Below are positions 6,347 to 59,185 of a DNA stretch of 64,000 bases, in pieces. A program made the position numbers and the translations under genes. Positions within the stretch are counted from its first letter, which is position 1, and each line of letters starts with the position of its first letter. The DNA lies in the NCBI GenBank assembly GCA_045105115.1, contig JBGCDE010000065.1, positions 33,464 to 97,463 of the forward strand, in the 5' to 3' direction. The DNA is from Pseudomonadales bacterium. GTDB taxonomy: Bacteria > Pseudomonadota > Gammaproteobacteria > Pseudomonadales > JAUIET01. The notes beneath the pieces were generated by a model. That model had not been told where the DNA came from and made no database searches. It saw only the letters and a program-made list of their open reading frames with translations.

Positions 6347-6598
6347 ATGTGGACGGTTTACATAATTGAAGCATCAGACAACTCCTTGTACACCGGTATT
6401 AGCACCGATGTAGAACGGCGCTGGCAAGAGCATATGAGTGGCAAGACTGGCGCAAAGTTTTTTCGCGGTCGAAAGCCCAGGCGACTGGTGTACCAGCAAT
6501 CAGTCGGCGATCGAAGTCAGGCAAGCCAATTGGAAGCCGAAATCAAAAAGCTGAGTAGGGCTAAAAAGCTGGAATTGATTGCCGCCAATGTCAGTTAA
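6347..6598 (+). CDS. GIY-YIG nuclease family protein (YhbQ/UPF0213-like)
   Basis: WTVYII...SLYTGISTDVERRWQEH...GAKFFRGRKP...EAEIKKLSRAKK. Confidence 0.9.
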   Translation: MWTVYIIEASDNSLYTGISTDVERRWQEHMSGKTGAKFFRGRKPRRLVYQQSVGDRSQASQLEAEIKKLSRAKKLELIAANVS

Positions 6599-7190
6599 CA
6601 CAAGACCCTTCTCTCAGGCGTGCGAAAACAATAAAGAACCGATTCTCAAAGTGCTTGAAAAAGCCTTTGCGCACGCGAATCATGTTCTGGAGATTGGCAG
6701 CGGTACCGGGCAACATGCCGCCTTTTTTTCCTCCAGGCTACCGCATTTGATGTGGCAACCCAGCGACGTTTTAGAAAACCTATCCGGTATACAACAGTGG
6801 GTGAACAGCGCCGGCTGCCCCAATTTGAAACAGGCACAAATATTTGATGTTCGAGATGCTGATTTGCCATCGGGCAAATTCGACGCAGTGTTTAGCGCCA
6901 ATACTCTGCACATTATGGCGTGGGAAAATGTTGAAAAAACGTTTGCGCATTTGAGCGCGCTGGGCGCCGGAACCGAACTATGTGTTTATGGCCCTTTCAA
7001 TTACCAGGGGCAATTTACAAGTGCCAGCAATGCCCGATTTAACGACTGGCTAAATCAACGCGACCCAAGCAGCGCAATTCGTGATTTCGAAGCAGTGAAT
7101 TCACTGGCCAACCGTTCAGGCTTCGTTCTGGAAAGCGATTACGAAATGCCGGCGAATAATCGACTGCTGCATTGGGTTAAAGTTGGCTAG
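6588..7190 (+). CDS. DUF938 SAM-dependent methyltransferase
   Basis: PFSQACENNKEPIL, VLEIGSGTGQHA, WQPSD, YGPF, MPANN motifs. Confidence 0.9.
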   Translation: MSVNTRPFSQACENNKEPILKVLEKAFAHANHVLEIGSGTGQHAAFFSSRLPHLMWQPSDVLENLSGIQQWVNSAGCPNLKQAQIFDVRDADLPSGKFDAVFSANTLHIMAWENVEKTFAHLSALGAGTELCVYGPFNYQGQFTSASNARFNDWLNQRDPSSAIRDFEAVNSLANRSGFVLESDYEMPANNRLLHWVKVG

Positions 7191-7225
7191 GTTTTGTTCG
7201 AATAGTGTTTGCTTAAGTATTGTCA

Positions 7226-7347
7226 GTGGCACCGAGGCTTTGGGTTGAGTGTCGGCCAGCGAGACTGTGTGAGGGAGGGCCCCCGAACACAAGCCCCCAT
7301 GGATGGGTTCACGGCGTGTCTCGCTGGCCGACACTCAATTCAAAGCC
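7226..7347 (+). repeat. Structured intergenic element, copy A (30-bp stem, A(N)GGAT hairpin loop; TwoAYGGAY-like)
   Basis: Arms 7236-7265 and 7318-7347 pair over 30 bp (2 G-U). The 52-nt interior includes CAAGCCCCCATGGATGGGTTCACGGCGT. Homologous copy at 58070-58227. Confidence 0.85.
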
Positions 7348-7414
7348 GGTCTTGATGCTCAACTAAGTGCCAGTAAGTTCCTATCTGTCGTTTGAATCTC
7401 CGAAGCAAAGCCAC

Positions 7415-8026
7415 TTAGCCTTTCTTGGTTTCATTATAAGGTCGAGTAGCGCGGTCGCCTACGGATAAGCGTGGCTCAACAGACTCTATTTCGTGCAGTG
7501 GTGTTGTAGGTTTCAATGAGGCATTAGAGCGTCTTGCCAGTTCCTGATATTCCAATGGCGCGTTTTGCATCCATTTGATTTGCGTGTCGTCCATTTCGCG
7601 CACAATTTTCGCTGGCATACCAGCTGCCATGCAACGATCGGGTAATTCAAATTCAGCCTTGATGAACGCCATCGCAGCAACCATCGCGCTTTCGCCTATA
7701 ACGGCGCCGTCCATAACCACTGCGCGAATGCCAACGAAACCATGGCGTTTAACGTGACAGCCGTGCAGCACAGCACCGTGTGCGATATGGCCGTTCTCAT
7801 CAACCCGGCATTGCTTATTAGGGAAGCTGTGTAGCACGCAACCCTCTTGTATATTGCAGCCGTCTGCGACAAAAATCTGACCAAAGTCACCGCGCAGGCT
7901 GGCGCAGGGGCCGATGTAACAATTCGCACCAATGATAACGTCACCAATAATGACCGCATCCGGGTGTACAAAACTGCTTGGGTCGATAACAGGCGCTACG
8001 CCATCAATCTCATAGATCTTTGCCAA
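7415..8026 (-). CDS. Gamma-carbonic-anhydrase-like hexapeptide protein, PaaY/CaiE family
   Basis: YEIDGVAPVIDPSSFVHPDAVIIGDV...SLRGDFG...NIQEGCVLH...HIAHGAVLHGC; TTG start at 8026 with GGAG RBS. Confidence 0.88.
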   Translation of the reverse strand: MAKIYEIDGVAPVIDPSSFVHPDAVIIGDVIIGANCYIGPCASLRGDFGQIFVADGCNIQEGCVLHSFPNKQCRVDENGHIAHGAVLHGCHVKRHGFVGIRAVVMDGAVIGESAMVAAMAFIKAEFELPDRCMAAGMPAKIVREMDDTQIKWMQNAPLEYQELARRSNASLKPTTPLHEIESVEPRLSVGDRATRPYNETKKG

Positions 8027-9299
8027 CTTTCGTCTCCAGTCCGGAATACATTGCGCCACTGCCAAGTCGTTTGGCAATGCTAGGGTTTTCAACATAGTCA
8101 CTATTAAAAGGCAACATATCGCATGCCTGTACGCGATAGTCGCGAATGTTCTCGGTCTCCTCGCGAAGGAATCGATCTACGGCGAGCTCGAAATCTTCAT
8201 CAGCCAGCCAGTGACAAGAATGAGTAAAGACCGGCACAAACCCGCGTTGAATTTTGTGTTGACCCTGCGCACCTGGGTCAAAGTGCTGAAGCTTATGCTT
8301 GATGCAATAATCAATGCCCTGGTAGTAGCAGGCCTCAAAATGCAGATATTCAAATTCTTCAGCGCAGCCCCAATAGCGACCGTACAGTGTGTGTTCGTCC
8401 TTAAAACATAGCGCCGCGCCAACCGCTTGCTGGTCGCGGCTTGCCATAACCATCACCAGTTGGTCGGGCATACTCTTTGCGATCAGTTCGAAAAACTCGC
8501 GATTCAAATACCCGGCTCCACCACGCTTGTAATAAGTCATGTGGTAAAACTGATAAAAGTCTTCCCAATGCCTTTGCTGAATATCAAAGCCGCTAAGTTG
8601 CTGTAGCTCTATGCCTTGCTCGGCCACACGCTTACGTTCTTTGCGTAAGTTCTTGCGCTTGCGTGATGCAAAGCTTGCAAGAAACTCGTCAAAATCTTCG
8701 AAATCATCATTGAACCAGTGATACTGACAATCAAGCCTTCGCAGCAAACCTTGATCGCCTAATTGGGTGGCTTGCTTGTCATCAGGGAACAAAACATGCC
8801 AGGACGATGCGTTGATGCTGCTTGCCAGCTGCTTAAATTTCTCAAAAATAAGAGTTGGCAGTTCGGTATTTTCTTGTTCCGATGCACAGCATAGAAAACG
8901 CTTGCCGGTGACAGGAGAGAATGGAACAGCGGTTAAAATTTTCGGGTAGTAGTCACGGCCCGCGCGTTGATATGCGTTTGCCCAGCTCCAGTCGAAAACA
9001 TACTCGCCATAACTGTGCGACTTCACGTACGCTGGCATTGCGGCCACTAAAGTTTGTTGATCGTCAAAGACAGCGGCATGGCAGGCTTGCCAGCCAGTGT
9101 CTGTGCACACCGAGCCGCTGGCTTCCATAGCATGCAGAAATTCGTGCCGCGTGAATGGAGAGTTCTCGCTATTCAGTGCATTCCATTGCTCAGCGGAAAC
9201 CTGATCAATGCTGCCCAGCAGTTCTACGGTGTACTTAATTGAGGCGCTGATAGTGCTTGTCTTCTTACCTGTTTTTCTTGCCTGTTCGTCGCTGACTAT
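8010..9299 (-). CDS. GNAT / FemAB-like N-acetyltransferase (DUF482); start codon non-canonical or uncertain
   Basis: KSHSYGEYVFDWSWA, YYPKILTAVPFSPVTG, LYGRYWG, LHFEACYYQGIDYCI motifs. Family-like sequence continues upstream of the first ATG (9128) in an open frame. Confidence 0.85.
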   Translation of the reverse strand: MVSDEQARKTGKKTSTISASIKYTVELLGSIDQVSAEQWNALNSENSPFTRHEFLHAMEASGSVCTDTGWQACHAAVFDDQQTLVAAMPAYVKSHSYGEYVFDWSWANAYQRAGRDYYPKILTAVPFSPVTGKRFLCCASEQENTELPTLIFEKFKQLASSINASSWHVLFPDDKQATQLGDQGLLRRLDCQYHWFNDDFEDFDEFLASFASRKRKNLRKERKRVAEQGIELQQLSGFDIQQRHWEDFYQFYHMTYYKRGGAGYLNREFFELIAKSMPDQLVMVMASRDQQAVGAALCFKDEHTLYGRYWGCAEEFEYLHFEACYYQGIDYCIKHKLQHFDPGAQGQHKIQRGFVPVFTHSCHWLADEDFELAVDRFLREETENIRDYRVQACDMLPFNSDYVENPSIAKRLGSGAMYSGLETKVGKDL

Positions 9300-13489: not shown

Positions 13490-14287
13490 ATGCTGCGTAT
13501 TCTTGCTTTCTTCGCATTGCTGCTACCGGCAAGCGCTCAAGCAGCAACACTTGAAGACGTTCAGTTATTGCTGCTACGTTCAGGGCTTGATGCGGCGGTC
13601 AGACAGTTAGACTTGGCGTATGACATCAATCTTCGTAGACAATCGAATACTTACGAACTCAGTGTTGGGCAGCGCGATCAACTTGAATCAGCGATGTTTG
13701 TTTATCGCGGTGAACAATTACTTGAAGAACTTGCGCAAACGCTTGTCGGTGAATTCGAGCAGCAAGCTGTGCAACCAATCAAGTCCGCGATGGAGCACGA
13801 ACTGCTTGAGAAATTTCGCCGCTTTGAGCGTATAGGCAATTCAGCTGGCCAGCGACAAAAGCTTGAAGACTATGTTGCTGAAGCTACGCTAGAGCCGCTG
13901 CGAATTGATTTGCTACGCGCTTGTCATGAAGCAGATTACGGACCGATCGTGGCCGCTATAATCCAATCGTTCGCCGAAGTGGATTCAGCGGTCGCACTAG
14001 ACCGTATCAGTGGTGAGCGATTTACGGCGAATGACTATGAGGGCATAAAACTGTGGCGTAGTGAGCTTGAAGGCTTGTACGCAGAACATTATTTAACGGG
14101 TGCAGATCCATACCTGGCGTATACCTACCGTTTTGTTCGTGACGAACAATTGCAACAGTACGCCGAAATTTGGCAAGACCGTAACGTAAAGTGGTTCATG
14201 GATACCTCGCTTTTGCAGCTTAGGGTACTGTTACAAGCTAAAAGGCAGAGTATGATTGCCTCTCTGGATATTGAACAACAAGAATAA
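13490..14287 (+). CDS. Exported hypothetical protein (DUF2059-like helical protein)
   Basis: Signal peptide MLRILAFFALLLPASAQA; C-terminal YTYRFVRDEQLQQYAE; operonic spacing. Confidence 0.65.
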   Translation: MLRILAFFALLLPASAQAATLEDVQLLLLRSGLDAAVRQLDLAYDINLRRQSNTYELSVGQRDQLESAMFVYRGEQLLEELAQTLVGEFEQQAVQPIKSAMEHELLEKFRRFERIGNSAGQRQKLEDYVAEATLEPLRIDLLRACHEADYGPIVAAIIQSFAEVDSAVALDRISGERFTANDYEGIKLWRSELEGLYAEHYLTGADPYLAYTYRFVRDEQLQQYAEIWQDRNVKWFMDTSLLQLRVLLQAKRQSMIASLDIEQQE

Positions 14288-14314
14288 TATCCAACTCAGC
14301 TGAAGGAGCAGCTT

Positions 14315-16573
14315 ATGAAAAACGCTATTCAAAGTAAGTATCGCCAAGTAAAGATTGGGCCTGATGCTCTGGGCTGGTCTTCCTGGGTCAAGGCATTGTT
14401 GTTGCTGGGCTTCTTTTCCCTCGTTCTGGCGCTGTTGCCAACCACATTGGTCTTGTTGGCAGGAAAAATATACCAACACGCTGATCGTGATGAACATCGC
14501 GGTGCAATGGCTGTTATGAATGCAGCGCTGGATGATGATCATGATGTTCCACGCTATTTGGAGCAAGGTTGGGGTCGAGCAGATAGCTTGTGGTTTTATA
14601 ACGTTACCCAGGGATCTAACGTAATACCTTACGACTTTTTTCTGGAACTGGAACAAGTAGACTCTACGGCAAAGGCGGTCAGCCTGTTTCGTGATAATCA
14701 AAACATGGACAAGTTTCGCTATCTATTGCAGAAGCCAACTCTGTTCAATCCAAATGGGCTGCCAGTGGGTTTTGTTAAAGACAAATACCAGAGCAAAGAC
14801 TACCTTGGGTTTAATTGTGCAACCTGCCATACCGGGCAAATAAACTTTGAAGGTATGTCGGTGCGCATTGATGGCGGTCCAGCAATGGCTGACCTGGATG
14901 GTTTTCTTGAAAGTCTATACAAAGCGATGCAAAGCACTCTGTCTGATCCTGCGAAGAAGCAGCGATTTCTAAACGCTGTGCTTGAGCGGAATGGTTTTTG
15001 GCGTGCTGTCAGTGGCGGCCGTAGCTACACAAGCGAGGAAGAAATAGAACAGGACTTGCGTATCTGGACGGAGCGAACACGTCAGTACAACCAAATCAAT
15101 CAGTCAACGCACGCTTATGGCTACGCTCGCCTAGACGCTTTTGGAAGAATTTATAATCGCGTACTGCAACACGTAATCAACAAGCGCCAGGCCAGTGAAT
15201 TATTGGCCCTTGCCGTTAATAAAGCCGAGCAGCGTTTGCTCACAGACGAACAAATTGAGTATGTTCTAAGCGAACATAACGAAACAATTTTTGGGAGGGT
15301 CGGTTTTGAGAGCATGGTTAGTAATCTCAGGCGTGCTGATTCAGACTATCCAGGTCTAACTGAAGCGGAAGTTGAATCGGCAATGCGGCATTTTTTCAAT
15401 GAAGCTAATGCGCCAGTTAGTTACCCATATTTATGGGATGTGGCGCAAACAGATTACGTGCAATGGAACGGGCTGCAGTCTAATGCAGGTGTTGGTGCTT
15501 TGGGTCGCAATACCGGACAGGTTATCGGCGTTTTTGCGAGTCTTGACTGGACAGAGGAAAAATCCTGGTTCAGAGGCTGGAGCTTATCGGCACTAATCAG
15601 TGGTCAAAAAGTGAAACGTCACCGCATTGATTTTCAGTCTTCGGTTGATGGCGTAAATCTGTCACGCATGGAAGGTACGCTTAAGAGCCTGAAGTCGCCG
15701 TTGTGGCGAGAAGCGTTTCCAGAAGATGTTGTAGCTATTAATGCGAGTTATGCGATTGATGAAGAGAAGGTGTCACGCGGTAAAGTTCACTATTTGAAAT
15801 ACTGTGTGTCGTGCCATGAACTGATTGATCGTGATGCCTGGGATCGCAAAATTACCTCAAAAATGCTGCGCCTTGACAAGCTGGGCACCGATCAAACCAT
15901 GGCCATGAATGCTACCCGATACCTTGGTCGTTCAGGCAATATTGGTCAAACCTATCAGGGTACCGATGTGGGTCAGGTGGTCATTGGAAACACCGCACCT
16001 GTGCGACAAATTCTCACTGCGGTTACAGCCGGCGTGATTGGTACCCCTGATCGCGACAAAGGAGTAGTTCGCCGAGTTGCAGATCAGGCGTATATGCTTG
16101 GCGCGTCGTTTTTTAACAATGATCTGGAGGCAAGCGTTAAAACCGGTGAATACGAGCCGGATACTACCGCAGATACTTACGCGTCTCTGCGAGCCTATAA
16201 AGCGCGGCCACTGAATGGCGTCTGGGCTACTGCGCCTTATTTACACAACGGATCAGTGCCCAGCTTATACGACTTGCTATTGCCGGAGCATCTCGAAGGT
16301 GAGCGCGCCAATGGTGAAGTGTGTGATGGTAAAGTACGCCCCGAATCTTTTTTGGTCGGTAGTCGCGAGTTTGATCCGTTGAAGGTTGGATTCAAGCAGG
16401 ATGACTATCAAGCCGATACAGGGTTCATTTTTGATACTGGATTGCCAGGCAATAGCAATAGTGGGCATGAGTACGCTGCCGGCTTTACTCCCGGGATGGG
16501 TACCGACCAGCCACTCACGATGCTCTGTGAAAACGAGCGCCTGGAGCTGCTGGAGTTTTTGAAAACGCTGTAG
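14315..16573 (+). CDS. Large dihaem c-type cytochrome, RoxA/RoxB / di-haem peroxidase-like
   Basis: Two CxxCH motifs (CATCH, CVSCH), MauG-like YKARPLNGVWATAPYLHNGSVP, GNSNSGHEY, N-terminal TM/signal; AAGGAG RBS. Confidence 0.85.
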   Translation: MKNAIQSKYRQVKIGPDALGWSSWVKALLLLGFFSLVLALLPTTLVLLAGKIYQHADRDEHRGAMAVMNAALDDDHDVPRYLEQGWGRADSLWFYNVTQGSNVIPYDFFLELEQVDSTAKAVSLFRDNQNMDKFRYLLQKPTLFNPNGLPVGFVKDKYQSKDYLGFNCATCHTGQINFEGMSVRIDGGPAMADLDGFLESLYKAMQSTLSDPAKKQRFLNAVLERNGFWRAVSGGRSYTSEEEIEQDLRIWTERTRQYNQINQSTHAYGYARLDAFGRIYNRVLQHVINKRQASELLALAVNKAEQRLLTDEQIEYVLSEHNETIFGRVGFESMVSNLRRADSDYPGLTEAEVESAMRHFFNEANAPVSYPYLWDVAQTDYVQWNGLQSNAGVGALGRNTGQVIGVFASLDWTEEKSWFRGWSLSALISGQKVKRHRIDFQSSVDGVNLSRMEGTLKSLKSPLWREAFPEDVVAINASYAIDEEKVSRGKVHYLKYCVSCHELIDRDAWDRKITSKMLRLDKLGTDQTMAMNATRYLGRSGNIGQTYQGTDVGQVVIGNTAPVRQILTAVTAGVIGTPDRDKGVVRRVADQAYMLGASFFNNDLEASVKTGEYEPDTTADTYASLRAYKARPLNGVWATAPYLHNGSVPSLYDLLLPEHLEGERANGEVCDGKVRPESFLVGSREFDPLKVGFKQDDYQADTGFIFDTGLPGNSNSGHEYAAGFTPGMGTDQPLTMLCENERLELLEFLKTL

Positions 16574-16603
16574 TTAGTCGATCTCGATCGTTGGGCCGCT
16601 GAG

Positions 16604-17605
16604 CTAACGGTCGCGCAACATTTTCCAGTACTCGCTTAGCCGAGACTCCGGGTCATCGCGATGTGTTCGGTACTTTGCGAACTCGGAAGCCCCAGCATTC
16701 TGGTCAAGCTCTATCCCCCATAAGGGTTCAACTTCATTTGGTAACATCGAATAACGGATATCAATTACTTCATTGGGGTTGTTCGGGTGCAATGCTACAT
16801 AGCCGTCAGAAAACCAAGTGAAGCGTTGTAAATCCTTTCGCTGCTGGGAATCCTGTTGAAGCCAGGGCAAGTCTCTGTCAGGGTTTAACTTAGCGATAGA
16901 ATCACCGGTAATCCATTGGGTATCGACACCTACTCGAACTGCATCGACATAAAAGCGATCACCAGTGCTGTAAATGGATTTGAACAATAGCAGGTTTGCA
17001 AAACCCGGTTTTACTTCCAGGCGCACTGGTTTATGGCCACGACTTTCCGCTAGCGCTGTGGCTGTGTTTAAAGCGCGCTCATGCTGCCACCAGCCAATGC
17101 ACAAATAAGCGATAGACCAACTCAGCGCAGCACGAGCTGGCCAGGGACTTTGTTTGCGAAGCGACACAAAAAGTAATACAAGAACCGGCACGGTAAGCAG
17201 TGGGTCTATGATTGAAATAGTATCCCAGGCGTAGCGTTTGTCTGAAAATGGCCACAGCAATAAGGTGCCATACGAAGTGCAGCTATCCAGTAAGCCATGC
17301 GTCGCATAGCCCAGCGTGCAGTACAGAAGTAAATTCCTGAATGGCCATTGTCGTCGCTTACCAAATGCGAAGAAGACAAACGCGGCGACAATAAGACCTC
17401 CGACCGGAATAAAAATTAGCGAGTGAGTAAAATGCCGATGATATTCAAGAAACATCAAAGGGTCAGCGCTAGAGCGAATCAGCACGTCCAGGTCGGCGGC
17501 CATTCCCGCTAGCCAACCGGCAAGCATTGCAATACCGACTCGGCCTGGTTGTGCGCTGCTTTGTGCGGCAGCGGCACCGAATGCGCCCTGAGTAATTGGG
17601 TCCAT
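16604..17605 (-). CDS. Inner-membrane metal-dependent hydrolase (YdjM/YbcI family)
   Basis: MDPITQG, ADLDV, HRHFTHS, THGLLDSCTSYGT, SIIDP motifs. Confidence 0.88.
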   Translation of the reverse strand: MDPITQGAFGAAAAQSSAQPGRVGIAMLAGWLAGMAADLDVLIRSSADPLMFLEYHRHFTHSLIFIPVGGLIVAAFVFFAFGKRRQWPFRNLLLYCTLGYATHGLLDSCTSYGTLLLWPFSDKRYAWDTISIIDPLLTVPVLVLLFVSLRKQSPWPARAALSWSIAYLCIGWWQHERALNTATALAESRGHKPVRLEVKPGFANLLLFKSIYSTGDRFYVDAVRVGVDTQWITGDSIAKLNPDRDLPWLQQDSQQRKDLQRFTWFSDGYVALHPNNPNEVIDIRYSMLPNEVEPLWGIELDQNAGASEFAKYRTHRDDPESRLSEYWKMLRDR

Positions 17606-17678
17606 CTTGATACGAAACTCTGTATACGACAATTGCTTATGTTACATTCGCCGTGCCGCACAACGTAGCGAAAAAAGT

Positions 17679-18674
17679 ATGCAATCGACACGCTCAGTTT
17701 TCTATTTGGCAGCCATTCTGGTTTTTGCCCAAGTGTACTCAATCCGGCTTGCTGCCGATGACTCGCCGTTTGCAACCGCGAATAGAACGGTTTTCGTGCG
17801 CTCGCTTGGCTTGCCCAATATTGAAGATGCCCGCGAATTAGCTGCGCGGCAAAGCACCGCTGCATTTACTATCGAACAAACCAGTCAGTTTGCAATAGAT
17901 GACCAGGGGCTTGAGCAAGCTTTCCTTGATGGTGAATCCAGCACGGCAACACTTAAGCTTCGCCATGCGTTCACTAAGCGCTTTGTCATAGGCATGGATA
18001 TTCCATTTGTCTCGCATGATGGCGGGTTTATGGACAGCTTTGTGGAAGGCTGGCATAGAACCTTTGGCTTGCCAAATGCACGTCGCGAAGAGTTTTCTCG
18101 CGATCAATTGTTATTTACCGTAAACACACCGGAGGCTTCTGCGCGACTGGACAGCAGTGGCTCGGGCGTGGGTGATGTAGCACTGCTCGCCCAATATCAA
18201 TTATTGGCCTCTCAGCATGCGAATCTTAGCGCCCAACTTCGATTGGAAGCGCCCACTGGTAATGCCGAGAAATTGATAGGCTCCGAATCCTGGGACGTGG
18301 CATTGGGGCTGAATGCTTATCGAGGTCAATTAGCGGGCGACTGGCGAATGTCGTTTCATGGCAGCCTCGGCGTAGTTCTGCCGGGTAATTCTGATTTGCT
18401 TCCACAGCTGCAAAATGACAGTGTGGTGTATGGTTCGGCTGCTTTAGCGCTGCCTGTGTTTTACGAATGGTTAACACTCAAGGCGCAATTGGAAGCACAC
18501 TCCGCGTTTTACGACACCGACATCAAGTCATTGGGTTCAACGTCGGTGCAATTAACCTTTGGTGTCGGAATGCAGCTGGATAAACGCTGGAATCTGAACA
18601 TCGGCTTGAGCGAAGATATAGCGGTTCGCACGGCACCGGATTTTACTGTGGTCATGTCTCTGGAGTATCGCTAG
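17679..18674 (+). CDS. DUF3187 family putative outer-membrane beta-barrel protein
   Basis: Signal peptide, DGESS, HDGGFMDSFVEGWHRTFGLPN, C-terminal SEDIAVRTAPDF...EYR. Confidence 0.75.
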   Translation: MQSTRSVFYLAAILVFAQVYSIRLAADDSPFATANRTVFVRSLGLPNIEDARELAARQSTAAFTIEQTSQFAIDDQGLEQAFLDGESSTATLKLRHAFTKRFVIGMDIPFVSHDGGFMDSFVEGWHRTFGLPNARREEFSRDQLLFTVNTPEASARLDSSGSGVGDVALLAQYQLLASQHANLSAQLRLEAPTGNAEKLIGSESWDVALGLNAYRGQLAGDWRMSFHGSLGVVLPGNSDLLPQLQNDSVVYGSAALALPVFYEWLTLKAQLEAHSAFYDTDIKSLGSTSVQLTFGVGMQLDKRWNLNIGLSEDIAVRTAPDFTVVMSLEYR

Positions 18675-20850: not shown

Positions 20851-21723
20851 GTGAAAAAACCTTCTCTGCTCATCATAGGCTGTGGTGCGATCGGCAATGC
20901 GATTGCTGCCCAGAATTCCACCAGGTCTGTGTGGCAGCTGCACGGCGCGCGACGCAATGTTGATAAATTGGCGCCAGAGATTTCTGGCCACCGTGTCGAC
21001 TACACGGATGCAGCTGCTGTTAGCCAATTGTTATCAGACTGCGTAGCCGATTACTTGTTGCTGACGTTTACGCCTTTTTCATACAGTGATGAGGGGTATC
21101 AGCAAGCGTATGTGGTTGGCGTGCGTAATGTGCTGGCGGCACTTCGCCAGCCACCGAAGCGGATAGTATTTGTTTCGAGTACCAGCGTGTATGGTCAGCA
21201 CAACGGCGAGTGGGTTGATGAAGAGTCTGATGCAGTACCGACCGGTTTTAGTGGCCGAGTAATGCTGCAGTGCGAGCAGATGTTAGCAGACAGTGCAGTA
21301 CCCTCTACCAGTATTCGCTGTGGGGGTATTTATAACTCGACAAGTACCCGGCTTGTAGACGCGGTGCGCGAAGGTCGGTTCAGCGCAAGCAATCACTTTA
21401 CTAACCGCATTCATCGTTACGATTGTGCCGCAGCGATTTTGCATTTGTTGAATCTGGATGTGCTTGGTCAGGCAGTACAGGCGTGCTACCTGGGTGTGGA
21501 CAGCGAGCCCGCGCGCAAGCTTGAGGTAGAGCGTTGGCTGGCTGCACGATTGGGTATTGCTTATCCTGAGAGTGTTCAAGCCCACAATGACAATGAGGTT
21601 TCGCAGCGCAAAGTAGGTAGTAAGCGTTGTAACAACCAGCGCTTACTGGATAGCGGTTTTCAATTTCGCTACCCGGATTTTCGTGATGGTTATGGAGAGG
21701 TGATCCAATTGGTCAGCCGCTAA
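20851..21723 (+). CDS. NAD(P)-dependent epimerase/dehydratase (atypical SDR)
   Basis: IIGCGAIG, FVSSTSVYG, WVDEES, TNRIH motifs; GTG start at 20851. Confidence 0.9.
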   Translation: MKKPSLLIIGCGAIGNAIAAQNSTRSVWQLHGARRNVDKLAPEISGHRVDYTDAAAVSQLLSDCVADYLLLTFTPFSYSDEGYQQAYVVGVRNVLAALRQPPKRIVFVSSTSVYGQHNGEWVDEESDAVPTGFSGRVMLQCEQMLADSAVPSTSIRCGGIYNSTSTRLVDAVREGRFSASNHFTNRIHRYDCAAAILHLLNLDVLGQAVQACYLGVDSEPARKLEVERWLAARLGIAYPESVQAHNDNEVSQRKVGSKRCNNQRLLDSGFQFRYPDFRDGYGEVIQLVSR

Positions 21724-21748
21724 GCAAGCCGCTTGACTGCTGTCTCAA

Positions 21749-22132
21749 CTACAAAGCTAAAATAGCCTCTACCTCCAGATCACAGTCCTTGGGCAAGGCG
21801 GCAACGCCAACGCAAGCTCTGGCCGGATAAGGTTCGTTAAAGTACTCTTTCATCACTTCGTTCACCGCCGCAAAATTGCCAAGATCCGGAAGAGATATAT
21901 TCACTTTTACCGCGTTATCTAAGGTGCCGCCTGCCGCAACTGCTACTGCGCGCATGTTTTGGAAAACGCGATGCGCTTGTGCAGTGATGTCGCCTTCGAC
22001 CAGTTCCATGGTGTCTGGATCAAGCGGAATCTGACCGGATACATAAACGGTCGATCCTACTTTAATAGCTTGAGAGTATGGCCCAATCGCAGCAGGGGAT
22101 TGATCGGTATGAATAACTTCTTTTGTGCTCAT
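21749..22132 (-). CDS. ridA: RidA/YjgF family reactive intermediate deaminase
   Basis: PAAIGPYSQA, VSGQIP, YPARACVGVAALPK. Confidence 0.93.
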   Translation of the reverse strand: MSTKEVIHTDQSPAAIGPYSQAIKVGSTVYVSGQIPLDPDTMELVEGDITAQAHRVFQNMRAVAVAAGGTLDNAVKVNISLPDLGNFAAVNEVMKEYFNEPYPARACVGVAALPKDCDLEVEAILAL

Positions 22133-22163
22133 TGCTTAGTCTACTCAGTGCTCAGCTTAGTAC

Positions 22164-24290
22164 TCAGGATTTCATTCGGGATACGGACGCAACGGATTTC
22201 ATCGCTCTAATGCGCTTCATGATACGGGCCAGATGTACCCGATCATGAACCCCTATCTCCAGCCGGACCACAGCTGTTTTTGCGTCCCGGTCTTCAGTGT
22301 TTATCTTTTCAATAGGCGCGTCAAGACTGCTCACCTTATTGGCAAGTTCCGCGATCGCACCACGTTGTTGCGCCAACTCAACACGCAGCTCTACCTGGAA
22401 CTCGCCTTTGGCTTTGTCGTGCCAGGTCAGCTCAATGCAACGTTCGGGATTATCACGAAACTCGGCAATGTTTCTACAATTGGCGACATGCACCACGATG
22501 CCGCGACCAGCGCTGATGTGGCCTGCAATCGGGTCACCCGGAATGGCGTGGCAGCACTTGGCAAAACTAACCATCATTCCTTCTGCACCATTGATAACGA
22601 AAGAGTCGTCACTGGTACTGCTGGGCTTGGCGCTGGCCTTGCTCACAATTTTTTCCGGCACCAGCCGTCGTGCAGTCAAATAAGCCACTCGATTGCCAAG
22701 ACCAATGTCTTCCAGAATCAAATCGAAATTGTCGTAGCCTGTTTCGTCCAGCAGCGTCTGAATACGCTTCTTATCCATTTTCTTATAACTGGTATTGAGA
22801 TTTTCCAAGGCTTTATCAAGTAGCCTGCGCCCGAGTTCGATGGCTTCTGTGTGGCGCTGATTTTTAAGAAAATGACGAATATTGCTGCGTGCTTTGCCGC
22901 TCACAACGAAGTTCAACCAGGAAGGGTTGGGTTGCGATCCGGGTGCGGTAATAATTTCCACTGTTTCCCCGCTTTGCAATTGCTCACTCAATGGCGCGAA
23001 ACGCCGGTTAATACGACAGGCGACGCAGCTGTTGCCAACATCGGTATGCACTTCATAGGCGAAATCAACAGCGGTAGAGCCGCTGGGCAGCGCGCGAATT
23101 TCACCTTTGGGCGTGAATACGTAAACTTCTTCCGGAAATAAATCGGTTTTAACGTGTTCAATAAATTCTTGAGAATTACCAGCACTTTGCTGCAATTCGA
23201 GCAAGCTTTGCACCCATTGCCGTGCACGGGTATGAGAGTTGACGTCTGTATTGTCATCCCCACTTTTGTATAGCCAGTGCGCGGCAATACCTTTGTTAGC
23301 CAGCTCTTCCATTCCTTCAGTTCGAATCTGAATTTCGATCGGCACGCCGTGCATGCCAAACAAAACGGTATGCAGGCTTTGATAGCCATTTGCTTTAGGA
23401 ATAGCGATATAGTCTTTGAAATGACCAGCCACCGGTTTATACAAATTGTGCACGGCACCCAGCACGCGATAACAAGTATCTACATCTTCAACAACAATGC
23501 GAAAAGCATACACGTCCATAATTTCTGAAAAGGACTTTCGCTTGGTACGCATCTTCTCGTAAATGCTGAACAGATGCTTTTCTCGGCCCAGTACTCTGGC
23601 GCTTAGGTCCTCATTCCCCAAGCGGTCTTCCAGGGCCGCTTTGATCTGCTGCAATACTTCTTTGCGATTGCCTCTGGCGGAGCGAACCGCCGCTTCAATC
23701 CGCCGTGCCCGCATTGGGTACATTGCGGTAAATCCCAGGTCTTCCAATTCAACCCGGGTCGTATTCATGCCCAGGCGGTTGGCAATCGGCGCATAGATTT
23801 CGAGAGTCTCGACCGCGATTCGGCGCCTTTTATCCACACTGAGCACACCCAGCGTGCGCATGTTGTGCAATCTGTCAGCCAGTTTGATCAAAATTACGCG
23901 GATGTCGCGCGACATGGCCAGTGCCATTTTCTGAAAATTCTCAGCCGCCGCTTCGGCACGTGAGCTGAAGCCTATTTTCGCAAGCTTTGACAAACCGTCC
24001 ACCAGTTCGGCCACGGTTTCTCCGAACTGCTCAGCGATCGCGTCTTTATCAACGCCGGTATCTTCGATTACATCGTGCAGCATGGCGGCCATCAGACTTT
24101 GGTCGTCCATGTGCATGTCGGCAAGAATGTAGGCAACGGCCAGGGGGTGGGTAACGTAGGGTTCACCGCTGCGTCTGGTTTGGCCGTCGTGCGCTTGCTC
24201 GGCGAAATAGTAAGCGCGCTTTACTTGCTGAATCTGAGCAGCAGGCAGGTACTCACAAAGTGAGTTCGCTAGGGTATCGATTGTTTGCAA
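22164..24290 (-). CDS. spoT: Bifunctional (p)ppGpp synthetase/hydrolase
   Basis: HDGQTRRSGEPYVTHP, LHDVIED, KLADRLHNMRTL, KANGYQSLH; TGS and ACT domains. Confidence 0.97.
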   Translation of the reverse strand: MQTIDTLANSLCEYLPAAQIQQVKRAYYFAEQAHDGQTRRSGEPYVTHPLAVAYILADMHMDDQSLMAAMLHDVIEDTGVDKDAIAEQFGETVAELVDGLSKLAKIGFSSRAEAAAENFQKMALAMSRDIRVILIKLADRLHNMRTLGVLSVDKRRRIAVETLEIYAPIANRLGMNTTRVELEDLGFTAMYPMRARRIEAAVRSARGNRKEVLQQIKAALEDRLGNEDLSARVLGREKHLFSIYEKMRTKRKSFSEIMDVYAFRIVVEDVDTCYRVLGAVHNLYKPVAGHFKDYIAIPKANGYQSLHTVLFGMHGVPIEIQIRTEGMEELANKGIAAHWLYKSGDDNTDVNSHTRARQWVQSLLELQQSAGNSQEFIEHVKTDLFPEEVYVFTPKGEIRALPSGSTAVDFAYEVHTDVGNSCVACRINRRFAPLSEQLQSGETVEIITAPGSQPNPSWLNFVVSGKARSNIRHFLKNQRHTEAIELGRRLLDKALENLNTSYKKMDKKRIQTLLDETGYDNFDLILEDIGLGNRVAYLTARRLVPEKIVSKASAKPSSTSDDSFVINGAEGMMVSFAKCCHAIPGDPIAGHISAGRGIVVHVANCRNIAEFRDNPERCIELTWHDKAKGEFQVELRVELAQQRGAIAELANKVSSLDAPIEKINTEDRDAKTAVVRLEIGVHDRVHLARIMKRIRAMKSVASVSRMKS

Positions 24291-56994: not shown

Positions 56995-57440
56995 CTTGAC
57001 TGTTGGGCTAATGCCCAGCGATCCAAGATAACTTTTGCGGCCAGGCTGTCGGCTGGGTTTTGCACGTAGTCGCGGCTACTACCTTGCTCTGACATCATTT
57101 CTTTTGCCTCATGACTGCTTAAACGCTCGTCATGAAGCGTTGTGCTAAATCCGTATTGTGTCCCGAAACGCCCTTCGAGTTGACGAGCAAAGCGTTTCAC
57201 GCGACTGTCTAACTCTCCGGCCGAGCCGTCCATATTTAATGGCAAACCAATCACACATAACTTGGGCTGCCATTCTTTGATGACAGATTCGAGCGCTTGC
57301 CAGTCGGGTTTTTCGCCGCGCGATCGCAACACACAAAGTGGTGTAGAGAAGCTCATTGGAGCGCTCAGTACTGCAACACCAATTTGACGCAGACCGAAAT
57401 CGAAGCCAAGCACAGTGCCTTGCATGCCAGTGTTACTCAC
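56991..57440 (-). CDS. yqgF: YqgF/RuvX pre-16S rRNA nuclease
   Basis: LGFDFGLRQIGVA, GLPLNMDG, DERLSS, DSLAA. Confidence 0.93.
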   Translation of the reverse strand: MSNTGMQGTVLGFDFGLRQIGVAVLSAPMSFSTPLCVLRSRGEKPDWQALESVIKEWQPKLCVIGLPLNMDGSAGELDSRVKRFARQLEGRFGTQYGFSTTLHDERLSSHEAKEMMSEQGSSRDYVQNPADSLAAKVILDRWALAQQSS

Positions 57441-57997
57441 GCGTGACCAGCTTCAACTCCGAGCATGCTTAAATCAAAGCCCAGATTTTTAGCTGCCAGT
57501 TCAGTACGCTTCTCAAGTGGTGTGTCGAACATTATTTTGGCGTCGGCTTCCAAAGTCAGCCACGCGTTTCGCGACAGTTCTTCCTCAAGCTGTCCTGGCG
57601 CCCAGCCCGCATAACCCAGCACAATCAATGCTTCATCCGGACCCTGATCGGCTGCTAAAGAGCGCAAGATATCCAGCGATGTGCTGATGCACACATCGCC
57701 AACCTGCAAGGTTTCATCCCAATCATTGTCACGGTGTAGAACAAAGCCCTGATGAGGAGAGACCGGACCGCCGGCCAAGACATCATCTGCAGCCTTACGG
57801 CCATCAGCGGGCAGCTCCAGCTGCACAAACACTTCTTCCACCGCCATGCCAATCGGCTTATTCACCACCAGGCCGGCCGCGCCTTCTTCCGAATGCTCAA
57901 ATACAAACGTCAGACTGCTGGTAAAAATAGAATCTTGCAGTGCAGGCATAGCCAATAGAAAGTGGTTGGCGAGACTGTCGAAATCAGGAATGCTCAT
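57437..57997 (-). CDS. yqgE: YqgE/AlgH family protein
   Basis: HFLLAMP, GGPV, LGYAGWAPGQLEEE, GHA C-terminus. Confidence 0.94.
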   Translation of the reverse strand: MSIPDFDSLANHFLLAMPALQDSIFTSSLTFVFEHSEEGAAGLVVNKPIGMAVEEVFVQLELPADGRKAADDVLAGGPVSPHQGFVLHRDNDWDETLQVGDVCISTSLDILRSLAADQGPDEALIVLGYAGWAPGQLEEELSRNAWLTLEADAKIMFDTPLEKRTELAAKNLGFDLSMLGVEAGHA

Positions 57998-58069
57998 AGC
58001 CCATTATTCGCTGTACGGCCGCACAAGTAAATGTAGTCTTCGGACTTGGTTGCACGCACGAGCAATTCG

Positions 58070-58227
58070 GTGGCACATAGGTGATGAGGTGAGTGTTGGC
58101 TTGAGCGACTGTTTGAGACAGGATGTCGAAAATCAAGCCCCCAGGGATGGGTTTAAAGCTGGCCCCGCGAGCGAAGCGAGTGTTTTGGGTCCGGCGTGTC
58201 GCACAAGCGAACACTCACCTCATCACC
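58070..58227 (+). repeat. Structured intergenic element, copy B (with 36-nt extra hairpin)
   Basis: Arms 58080-58109 and 58198-58227 pair at 28/30; inner hairpins GACAGGATGTC and CCAGGGATGG; homologous to 7226-7347. Confidence 0.85.
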
Positions 58228-58273: not shown

Positions 58274-59185
58274 TTACTCAGCCTTGGAAATTTTCCGAAC
58301 ATCGGTATCAAGCTGATTTTTCTGGAAATGCCATGTACGAACAATTTCCAGCTTGTCTATCTCACGCGACATCTCCGAAGAGAATGGCTCAAATGGCGCA
58401 GATTTTTCAACAATATTAATCGCCGCGTCATCCAACACCTTGTGACCAGAAGACTGCAACAACTGAATATTGGACACCGCGCCATTGGGCAACACCGTTA
58501 CCATTAAGCTCAGGTCGCCATACAGCTCACGTGTGCGCGCTTCTTCGGGATAATACTGGTTACCCGTGCGCTCAATCTCACGCTCCCATTTAAGCAGGTA
58601 CAGAGCGTCCATGGCACGCTTGGTTGATACCGAAGTGATACGCCGAACACGAGGCCGCTTGGCCGCCTCTTCCTTGTACTGATCCAGCTTCGCCGCCAGC
58701 GACGCAATCTCACCCATCAGCTCGTCTTCGCTCAACATGTCTTGCGTTTCGACTTTCTGTTTTTCTTCGGAACGATCACTTATCTGCACTTTGGCCTTGG
58801 CTTCATTCAAAGTGTGTACCGTATTGGCATCGTTCGCTTTCGATTCTTCCATGCGCTGTTGCATGGCCATTTTGCTGACTTGGTTGACCTCTACGTCCTG
58901 AAACTCCGAAAGTTCAGGTGAGGACAGCAGCGCTTTTTCCAACTCCGTACCGCTGGCTTGCTGATTTTGATCAGCCAGGTAATCCGCTTCGTCATTGCTT
59001 TCCTCACGAAACTGAGCCAGCGTAATTTCCAGTTGCTGGGTGCGAATATTGTTGATCTCAGCAGTGAAGGTGATGCCAAGTAAAATTGCCGCGTGGGCCG
59101 CCACCGCGAACGACAGGGCAGTGCCCAGCCGGTCAAGGTTGAACGACACATAATTGATGTTATTCGCTATTTGGGCCTGAGCCAT
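58274..59185 (-). CDS. Energy transducer TonB (TonB3-like)
   Basis: TM with AHAAILLG, ADYLADQNQQASG, C-terminal SSGHKVLDDAA...APFEPF...IVRTWHF; next to gshB. Confidence 0.88.
   Translation of the reverse strand: MAQAQIANNINYVSFNLDRLGTALSFAVAAHAAILLGITFTAEINNIRTQQLEITLAQFREESNDEADYLADQNQQASGTELEKALLSSPELSEFQDVEVNQVSKMAMQQRMEESKANDANTVHTLNEAKAKVQISDRSEEKQKVETQDMLSEDELMGEIASLAAKLDQYKEEAAKRPRVRRITSVSTKRAMDALYLLKWEREIERTGNQYYPEEARTRELYGDLSLMVTVLPNGAVSNIQLLQSSGHKVLDDAAINIVEKSAPFEPFSSEMSREIDKLEIVRTWHFQKNQLDTDVRKISKAE

Follow-up and report, generated by a model that had tools for sequence, protein, structure and literature searches.

The window analysed here, a 64,000-nt stretch of the draft genome of a Pseudomonadales bacterium (source genome G000; 4.8 Mb in 284 contigs), carries two copies of a structured element, A and B. 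Copy A (7226-7347) lies between a gene for a DUF938 methyltransferase-like protein and a convergent gene for a hexapeptide-repeat transferase. Copy B (58070-58227) lies between an AlgH-like (DUF179) gene and a gene for a protein with a TonB C-terminal domain, and as both flanking genes are on the minus strand, B is antisense to both of its neighbours. The two copies share one plan: a GTGGCAC-NNA leader, a 30-nt left arm, TGTnT-GA-hairpin-GA, CAAGCCCCCA(T/G)GGATGGGTT(C/T)A, CGGCGT and a 30-nt right arm. Once the extra 36 nt of B (58156-58191) are removed the copies are of equal length (158-36 = 122 nt). The sequence-only reading of this DNA had described the antisense position of B, the shared plan and the equal length, and the sequence at both coordinates reads as it claimed. 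Four DNA contig sets aligned to the region gave a high summed depth over the repeat and included pieces bridging both junctions of A, with no joints. The features are as follows.

6579..7190, plus strand: DUF938 methyltransferase-like gene, neighbour of A (gene call)
7191..7414, plus strand: inserted segment, present in the source genome and absent from the orthologous locus in three sister species, G002, G004 and G005 (locus comparison)
7226..7235, plus strand: leader of copy A (TGGCAC at 7227-7232, then NNA), unpaired and lineage-conserved (position table over 99 copies)
7236..7265, plus strand: left arm of the 30-bp basal stem of copy A (fold, arm alignment, covariation)
7266..7291, plus strand: hairpin 1 of copy A, with a 5-bp helix, tandem GA/GA, a 3-bp helix and the loop AGGGCC (fold, alignment)
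7293..7315, plus strand: hairpin 2 of copy A, a GCC/GGC helix around CCCA-UGGA-UGGG with the tip AUGGAU (fold, covariation)
7318..7347, plus strand: right arm of copy A, pairing with 7236-7265 and including two G-U pairs (fold)
7415..8101, minus strand: hexapeptide-repeat transferase gene, convergent neighbour of A (gene call)
57437..57997, minus strand: AlgH-like (DUF179) gene, neighbour of B (gene call)
58070..58079, plus strand: leader of copy B (TGGCAC at 58071-58076) (sequence)
58080..58109, plus strand: left arm of copy B (fold)
58110..58135, plus strand: hairpin 1 of copy B, of the CAGGAU type found in 18 of 100 copies (fold, head survey)
58137..58153, plus strand: core of hairpin 2 of copy B, CCCAGGGAUGGG (sequence)
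58156..58191, plus strand: optional extra 36-nt hairpin module in B, found in several other copies (7 heads of 88 nt) (fold, head survey)
58198..58227, plus strand: right arm of copy B, with two mismatches against the left arm (fold)
58274..59185, minus strand: gene with a TonB C-terminal domain, neighbour of B (gene call)

Compared position by position, the left arms of A and B are identical at 20 of 30 bases, eight pairs are doubly compensated and two more switch between G-U and Watson-Crick pairing, exactly as had been counted before; the stem of B also holds two mismatches that the earlier count lacked, G.G at pair 19 and A.A at pair 25. Both copies fold stably (A, -77.9 kcal/mol, z -8.2; B, -80.0 kcal/mol, z -7.0), and for neither did any of 200 shuffles do as well. 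The reverse strands fold nearly equally well, so that energy alone cannot assign the strand. When the whole inserted segment of ~230 nt is folded, copy A shows weak outer pairing (MFE frequency 0.0011).

The signals that might drive or end transcription of the element are sparse. A weak promoter had been suggested at 7194-7223; the string TTGTTC-N18-TATTGT is indeed present but fails promoter criteria (0 found), and a sigma-70 promoter scan of the sense strand returned 0 sites at both A and B. Across 99 copies, no conserved -35/-10 precedes the leader. One sigma-70-like site (TTTACT-17-AATAAT) occurs at 58003-58031 on the minus strand, just upstream of the AlgH-like gene and pointing away from B. 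The TGGCAC of the leader was considered as a sigma-54 promoter and rejected: the -24/-12 consensus needs a conserved GC ten bases past the GG, and the position table has T/G and T/C there. The element is not an intrinsic terminator either, in agreement with the sequence-only reading, since no T-run follows the stem (the trailer reads GGTCT...) and A and B have 0 terminator-like sites.

A and B had been presented as a family of two, which does not hold: they are two of at least 100 full-length copies. The core pattern has 101 matches in the genome, against 0 for a reversed control. A covariance model built from 26 copies gave at least 117 matches in the source genome: 100 sense copies of full length, 6 truncated by contig ends and 11 weak antisense echoes. 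As scoring was confined to 150 of 1062 candidates, these counts are a lower bound. Contigs C14, C15, C23, C113, C168 and C194 begin or end inside copies of the element, and such contig ends indicate that the repeat breaks assemblies, which again makes the copy counts lower bounds.

The head enclosed by the arms is far more uniform in plan. It is 52 nt long in 63 of 100 copies, longer heads having one or two optional hairpin modules, and consists of a hairpin with tandem G.A pairs, a linker and a second hairpin, with GGA at each tip, followed by CGGCGU. All 100 heads contain at least two GGA. The loop of hairpin 1 is AGGGAC in 68 of 100 copies (AGGGCC in copy A), CAGGAY in 18 and AUGGAU in 8. 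Hairpin 2 has the consensus GCC/GGC around CCCA-NGGA-UGGG, and the base preceding GGA may be T (79), G (7), A (2) or C (1), GGA itself being invariant. In the alignment, tandem GA stands on either side of the inner helix of hairpin 1 in A, in B and in copies of the TGTGT and TGTTT types, and is missing from those with a GTTGAAAAG-type hairpin. The helices of the head covary, hairpin 2 being built, for example, as GCCTCC..GGATT, GACCCC..cgTcg or GTCCCC..cgAcg.

Copies also occur in close pairs (<400 bp), 15 of 17 of which are divergent doublets, with spacers of 33-128 nt. For the 68 copies with both neighbours known, 21 are antisense to both, 23 lie between convergent genes and 7 between divergent genes, the neighbours being crudely defined as the longest ORFs of at least 120 aa. 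In two copies (C78:198-329 and C275:11401-11532) the left and right arms do not pair; these look like recombinants between copies, the left arm on C275 being nearly equal to that of a copy on C220. Elsewhere in the genome, outside the window, a second TwoAYGGAY-like subfamily was encountered (C84:172-303, C36:121295-121410, C120:753-880 and C28:19757-19879), with a head of two CCAGGGAUGG-type hairpins, copy-specific stems of ~27 bp and scores of 25-35 bits against the Rfam model RF01731; in 2 of its 4 copies GGCAC stands shortly after the stem, not before it. Immediately outside the leader and trailer there are recurring short palindromic words of the CTTAAG or CCTAAG-CTTAGG kind (for instance at 860-900 and 1040-1050 of locus L239), and words of the same type are found in the outer stems of the major subfamily, in which an outer inverted repeat of ~20 nt moves with the element.

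The claim that structure rather than stem sequence is conserved stands in the larger alignment. A clean stem is present in 86 of 100 core matches, its length being exactly 30 bp in 66 of the 86, 29 bp in 10 and 31 bp in 5. Pairing extends to 96.9% of cells in the alignment of 26 copies, and changes on both sides have occurred in 35 of 45 pairs overall and in 26 of 30 stem pairs; none of 500 shuffles attains any of the five measures used, and sliding the partners by 1-3 columns cuts pairing to 28-43%. The stems also reveal the strand on which pairing matters. The 2587 stem pairs comprise 2373 Watson-Crick, 163 G-U, 6 A-C and 45 other combinations. Neutral decay of a palindrome would yield G-U and A-C in equal numbers, and the ratio of 163 to 6 thus means that the GGA-bearing strand is protected, which bears out the earlier proposal that the plus strand is the functional one. 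The bias holds in every gene context, including the copies that are antisense to both neighbours (n = 20; 35 G-U and 0 A-C).

The element is widespread. Its exact 28-nt core occurs at no fewer than 110 loci in many genera, including Stenotrophomonas, Xanthomonas, Microbulbifer, Marinobacter, Cellvibrio, Rheinheimera and Alteromonas, and also in Aeromonadaceae; the stems of these copies are mostly 26-32 bp long and the leader varies by lineage. When the class was sampled evenly, the model derived from the 26 copies matched 31 of 150 other genomes (families) at E <= 1e-6. Within the genus, core matches number 5, 27, 7, 88 and 54 per genome, and the model finds at least 94 copies in G004 and at least 56 in G005. 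The exact core was also met in MAGs labelled Klebsiella and in one assembly of Nocardiopsis (loci L090, L055, L091 and L106); these do not sit well with the otherwise gammaproteobacterial set of carriers and may be due to contamination, mis-binning or transfer. The plasmid and phage collections searched with the element gave no match.

The motif that these features call to mind is TwoAYGGAY, tabulated by Weinberg et al. 2010 (PMC2864571) and represented in Rfam by RF01731 (clan CL00106, gathering cut-off 43 bits). A scan of the window at the Rfam gathering thresholds found no match, and A and B fall below the 43-bit threshold, not being reported against RF01731 even at E <= 10. Searched against the whole source genome, the model gives 11 matches at E <= 1, A and B not among them. 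Six of the 11 are sibling copies that match over the full length (1-168) at 29-36 bits, and hairpin 1 carries AUGGAU in all five of the six that were inspected; one different copy, on C112, passes the cut-off, and in the sister genome G004 one family member just exceeds it (43.1 against 43 bits). The Rfam alignment of a sibling corresponds end to end: basal stem, CAUGGAUG hairpin, CAAG linker and CCAUGGAUGG hairpin. The comparison with TwoAYGGAY that the sequence-only reading had suggested is thereby rewarded in part, the link being made by sibling copies and architecture while A and B themselves remain unmatched; the novelty of the element is lost.

The likeness extends beyond the model. As in TwoAYGGAY, a basal stem closes two sequential GGA-loop hairpins, judging from the folds of A and B and the covariation of 26 copies. 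Tandem G.A in hairpin 1 of A and B and the CAAG linker are likewise shared, and Gardner and Eldai 2015 (PMC4333381), who matched a CsrA motif to TwoAYGGAY and proposed CsrA binding, mention tandem GAs. There are many intergenic copies per genome, in Gammaproteobacteria; Li et al. 2026 (preprint, 10.64898/2026.09.22.753630) describe TwoAYGGAY as multicopy in Pseudomonadota, with medians of 11-23 and up to 202 copies, and with an extended basal stem. The same authors report that in Pseudomonas 68.4% of doublets are divergent, with a median spacing of 249 bp, to be compared with 15 of 17 divergent here, and propose Csr/Rsm sponging together with a mobile-element-like spread. There are differences as well. 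A, B and most copies in this genome score under the Rfam threshold, and AYGGAY is not present in both loops: A has AGGGCC in hairpin 1 and AUGGAU in hairpin 2, the loops of B are AGGGAU and CAGGAU, neither of them AYGGAY, and AUGGAU occupies hairpin 1 in only 8 of 100 copies, which are those that the Rfam model finds. Whereas most stem positions of TwoAYGGAY in SBW25 are described as highly conserved, the 30-bp stem here differs from copy to copy, and where Li et al. 2026 (10.64898/2026.09.22.753630) describe upstream arrays of 5-6-mers in Pseudomonas, the leader here is TGGCAC. Because of the sibling matches, the shared architecture, the divergent doublets and the fit with the literature, the element is, as far as its sequence and predicted structure tell, a lineage-specific form of TwoAYGGAY with a variant hairpin 1.

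Orthologous loci reveal how the element comes and goes. Site A is a 224-nt insertion (7191-7414), made up of the copy with 35 nt upstream and 67 nt downstream, between convergent genes that directly adjoin each other in G002, G004 and G005; the search for empty sites that had been recommended thus found the site empty in 3 of 3 comparable species. Site B is empty in G001 and G003, holds a copy of opposite orientation in G004 and retains only leader plus trailer in G005, where the remnant is a 7+1+7 palindrome centred on the leader. On a larger scale, 80 loci around copies in G004 and G005 were sought in the source genome, where 46 could be placed, 16 had no flank match and 18 had their flanks on different contigs. 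The source genome lacks a copy at 18 of the 46 placed loci, and 3 of 9 inspected empty sites keep a remnant there (leader and trailer with the base of the stem, a single arm, or the end of an arm); like the solo remnant at site B in G005, these look like internal deletions. The other 28 loci are filled in both genomes: 11 by single copies in the same orientation, 4 by single copies in opposite orientation, 5 by a doublet in each and 8 by a single copy in one and a doublet in the other. BLAST comparison of collinear flanks confirmed reversal in place at L187/C167, of a single copy at L239/C17 and of a whole doublet at L180/C36. The loci thus turn over by gain, by loss through internal deletion and by inversion in place. 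Solo leader-plus-trailer sites were also considered as virgin targets, and this was rejected, the loose pattern giving 14 matches against a rough chance estimate of ~25.

Shared loci allow stems to be followed base by base between species. In 16 copy pairs of G000 versus G004 or G005, a set selected for at least 44 of 60 identical arm bases, 366 pair positions are unchanged, 71 have changed on both sides with pairing kept and 30 have switched between Watson-Crick and G-U, as against 2 that became A-C and 8 other mismatches. The 71 double changes comprise 37 of the transition type and 34 of the transversion type. From one species to another the arms have diverged about as fast as the DNA beside them. 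These data show lasting selection, at individual loci, for pairing on the GGA-bearing strand, between species as well as in every gene context, and not merely when the element is copied. The heads behave differently from the arms: at a C58 locus and its counterpart in G005 the arms are identical at 27 of 30 bases and hairpin 1 is a different module, which means that heads pass from copy to copy and arms remain at their locus. New here are the compensatory changes seen at orthologous loci, the gain, deletion and inversion in place, and the exchange of head modules. Contig C58 also contains two segments, of ~4.6 kb at ~13500-18200 and ~2.5 kb at 20900-23400 (L163, 3527-8177 and 10905-13381), that G002, G004 and G005 lack in their collinear regions, and the first of them holds one copy of the element.

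Much of this turnover would be expected of a selfish, non-autonomous DNA element akin to REPs or MITEs, an ssDNA hairpin moved by an enzyme encoded elsewhere whose RNA has no role. Copy number varies widely within the genus, presence and absence are polymorphic at many loci (site A and the 18 of 46 above), copies stand at contig ends, the leader is preceded by no conserved promoter, orientation bears no relation to the adjoining genes, the outer inverted repeat travels with the major subfamily, and G.T is tolerated in DNA hairpins too. Like REP, BIME and REPIN sequences the element is a palindrome present in many intergenic copies, frequently as inverted pairs and close to the ends of genes; like the bacterial MITEs ERIC and Correia it measures 110-220 nt, would form a long hairpin if transcribed, shows insertion polymorphism and has, in its major subfamily, an outer inverted repeat. 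A mobilising enzyme is harder to find. REPs are short palindromes with conserved sequence that flank their RAYT gene, whereas here the stem sequence is free and the loop conserved. The Y1_Tnp profile has one match in the genome, to a RAYT/IS200-like Y1 (HUH) transposase gene (C2:22020-22352; L141, 1384-2183; 257-aa frame) that is flanked by a 27-nt inverted repeat unrelated to the element and probably has its own REP family; its contig holds no copy of the element, and no reverse transcriptase (RVT_1) match was found in the genome. The earlier statement that no mobilising enzyme is in the window is supported, and with these two profiles no linked enzyme was found in the genome. No protein family recurs beside ~100 copies in other genera, where the largest cluster of neighbours is the element itself read as an ORF and the remaining clusters are shared Stenotrophomonas loci. 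Unlike in MITEs, the terminal repeats differ between copies and an internal structured head is conserved, and neither site A nor any of the 9 inspected empty sites shows a target-site duplication; a parent insertion sequence did not come to light among the enzyme genes examined. The orientation of single copies is unbiased with respect to GC skew (22 versus 19, for the 41 of 60 single copies with enough contig and skew), which argues against an ssDNA stage tied to the replication strand. The 71 compensated changes at shared loci are not expected of a decaying insertion, and we regard a purely selfish element as unlikely.

The position of many copies might instead point to a cis-acting 3'-end element, an mRNA-stabilising hairpin or terminator-like barrier as proposed for REP sequences: of 80 copies whose downstream neighbour is known, 53 have that gene running towards the element, mostly within 16-100 nt, and by the same crude definition of neighbours 23 of 68 copies lie between convergent genes compared with 7 between divergent ones. 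This reading seems improbable given that A and B have neither a T-run nor a terminator-like site, and that either strand would make a long hairpin, yet one strand alone is protected from A-C whatever the orientation of the genes; it also leaves the conservation of 28 of 28 head bases across many gammaproteobacterial genera unexplained. That the variable 30-nt arms are programmable guides to the host's own genes, phages or plasmids is scarcely credible. The form alone, a conserved scaffold with a 30-nt variable part, invites the comparison, but the arms of 100 copies match only other, partly truncated copies in the genome, the plasmid and phage collections hold no match to the element, and the arms pair with each other and diverge about as the flanking DNA does.

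The strand- and locus-specific upkeep of pairing favours a working sense RNA over junk DNA, and with moderate confidence we take A and B to be copies of a lineage-specific TwoAYGGAY element, a putative sense RNA with a predicted CsrA-binding head. In the mechanism that we propose, a basal stem of ~30 bp, free to drift as long as it stays paired, would close a conserved head of ~52 nt with two GGA tips. The element would act as an RNA read in the sense direction, its stem possibly serving as a rigid stalk, and both GGA loops of a head may be bound by CsrA, the copies either titrating the protein or recruiting it locally. The host genome encodes csrA, and models of RsmY, RsmZ and CsrB have no match over their cut-offs in six genomes of the genus; together with the invariant GGA tips, this fits predicted CsrA binding. 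The resemblance to the CsrB, RsmY and RsmZ sponges (PMC4383904) lies in the paired GGA-loop hairpins and a host that encodes CsrA. Each of those sponges, however, is encoded by one gene that has a promoter and a terminator of its own and contains many GGA, whereas the element consists of ~100 dispersed units with 2-3 GGA each and has neither a promoter signal (99 copies) nor terminator-like sites (A and B).

Several observations weigh against the preferred reading of a sense RNA bound by CsrA. The 21 of 68 copies that are antisense to both neighbours and the lack of a conserved promoter leave sense transcription unexplained, and the shortest doublet spacer, of 33 nt, has no room for two promoters. 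The high share of transversion-type changes (34 of 71) might reflect mechanical copying of one arm from the other instead of selection. A and B themselves fail the Rfam model, and neither hairpin 1 of A nor either loop of B is strictly AYGGAY. A bolder variant is conceivable, though distinctly unlikely, in which the ~30-bp stalk would be a processing signal, cut by the double-strand-specific RNase III so as to free the GGA head from any transcript passing through a copy, the ~100 copies forming a distributed, transcription-coupled CsrA sponge in place of RsmY, RsmZ and CsrB. Were this so, the inverted doublets would ensure one sense head from either direction of read-through.

TwoAYGGAY is among the commonest structured repeats of Gammaproteobacteria. 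The genome is a clean natural experiment, offering ~100 unrelated stems, near-identical heads and sister species that share some of the loci. On the practical side, the element breaks assemblies, escapes the Rfam threshold and can pass as spurious ORFs in G+C-rich genomes. If its heads do bind CsrA, these repeats would constitute a large and unannotated layer of a global regulatory system.
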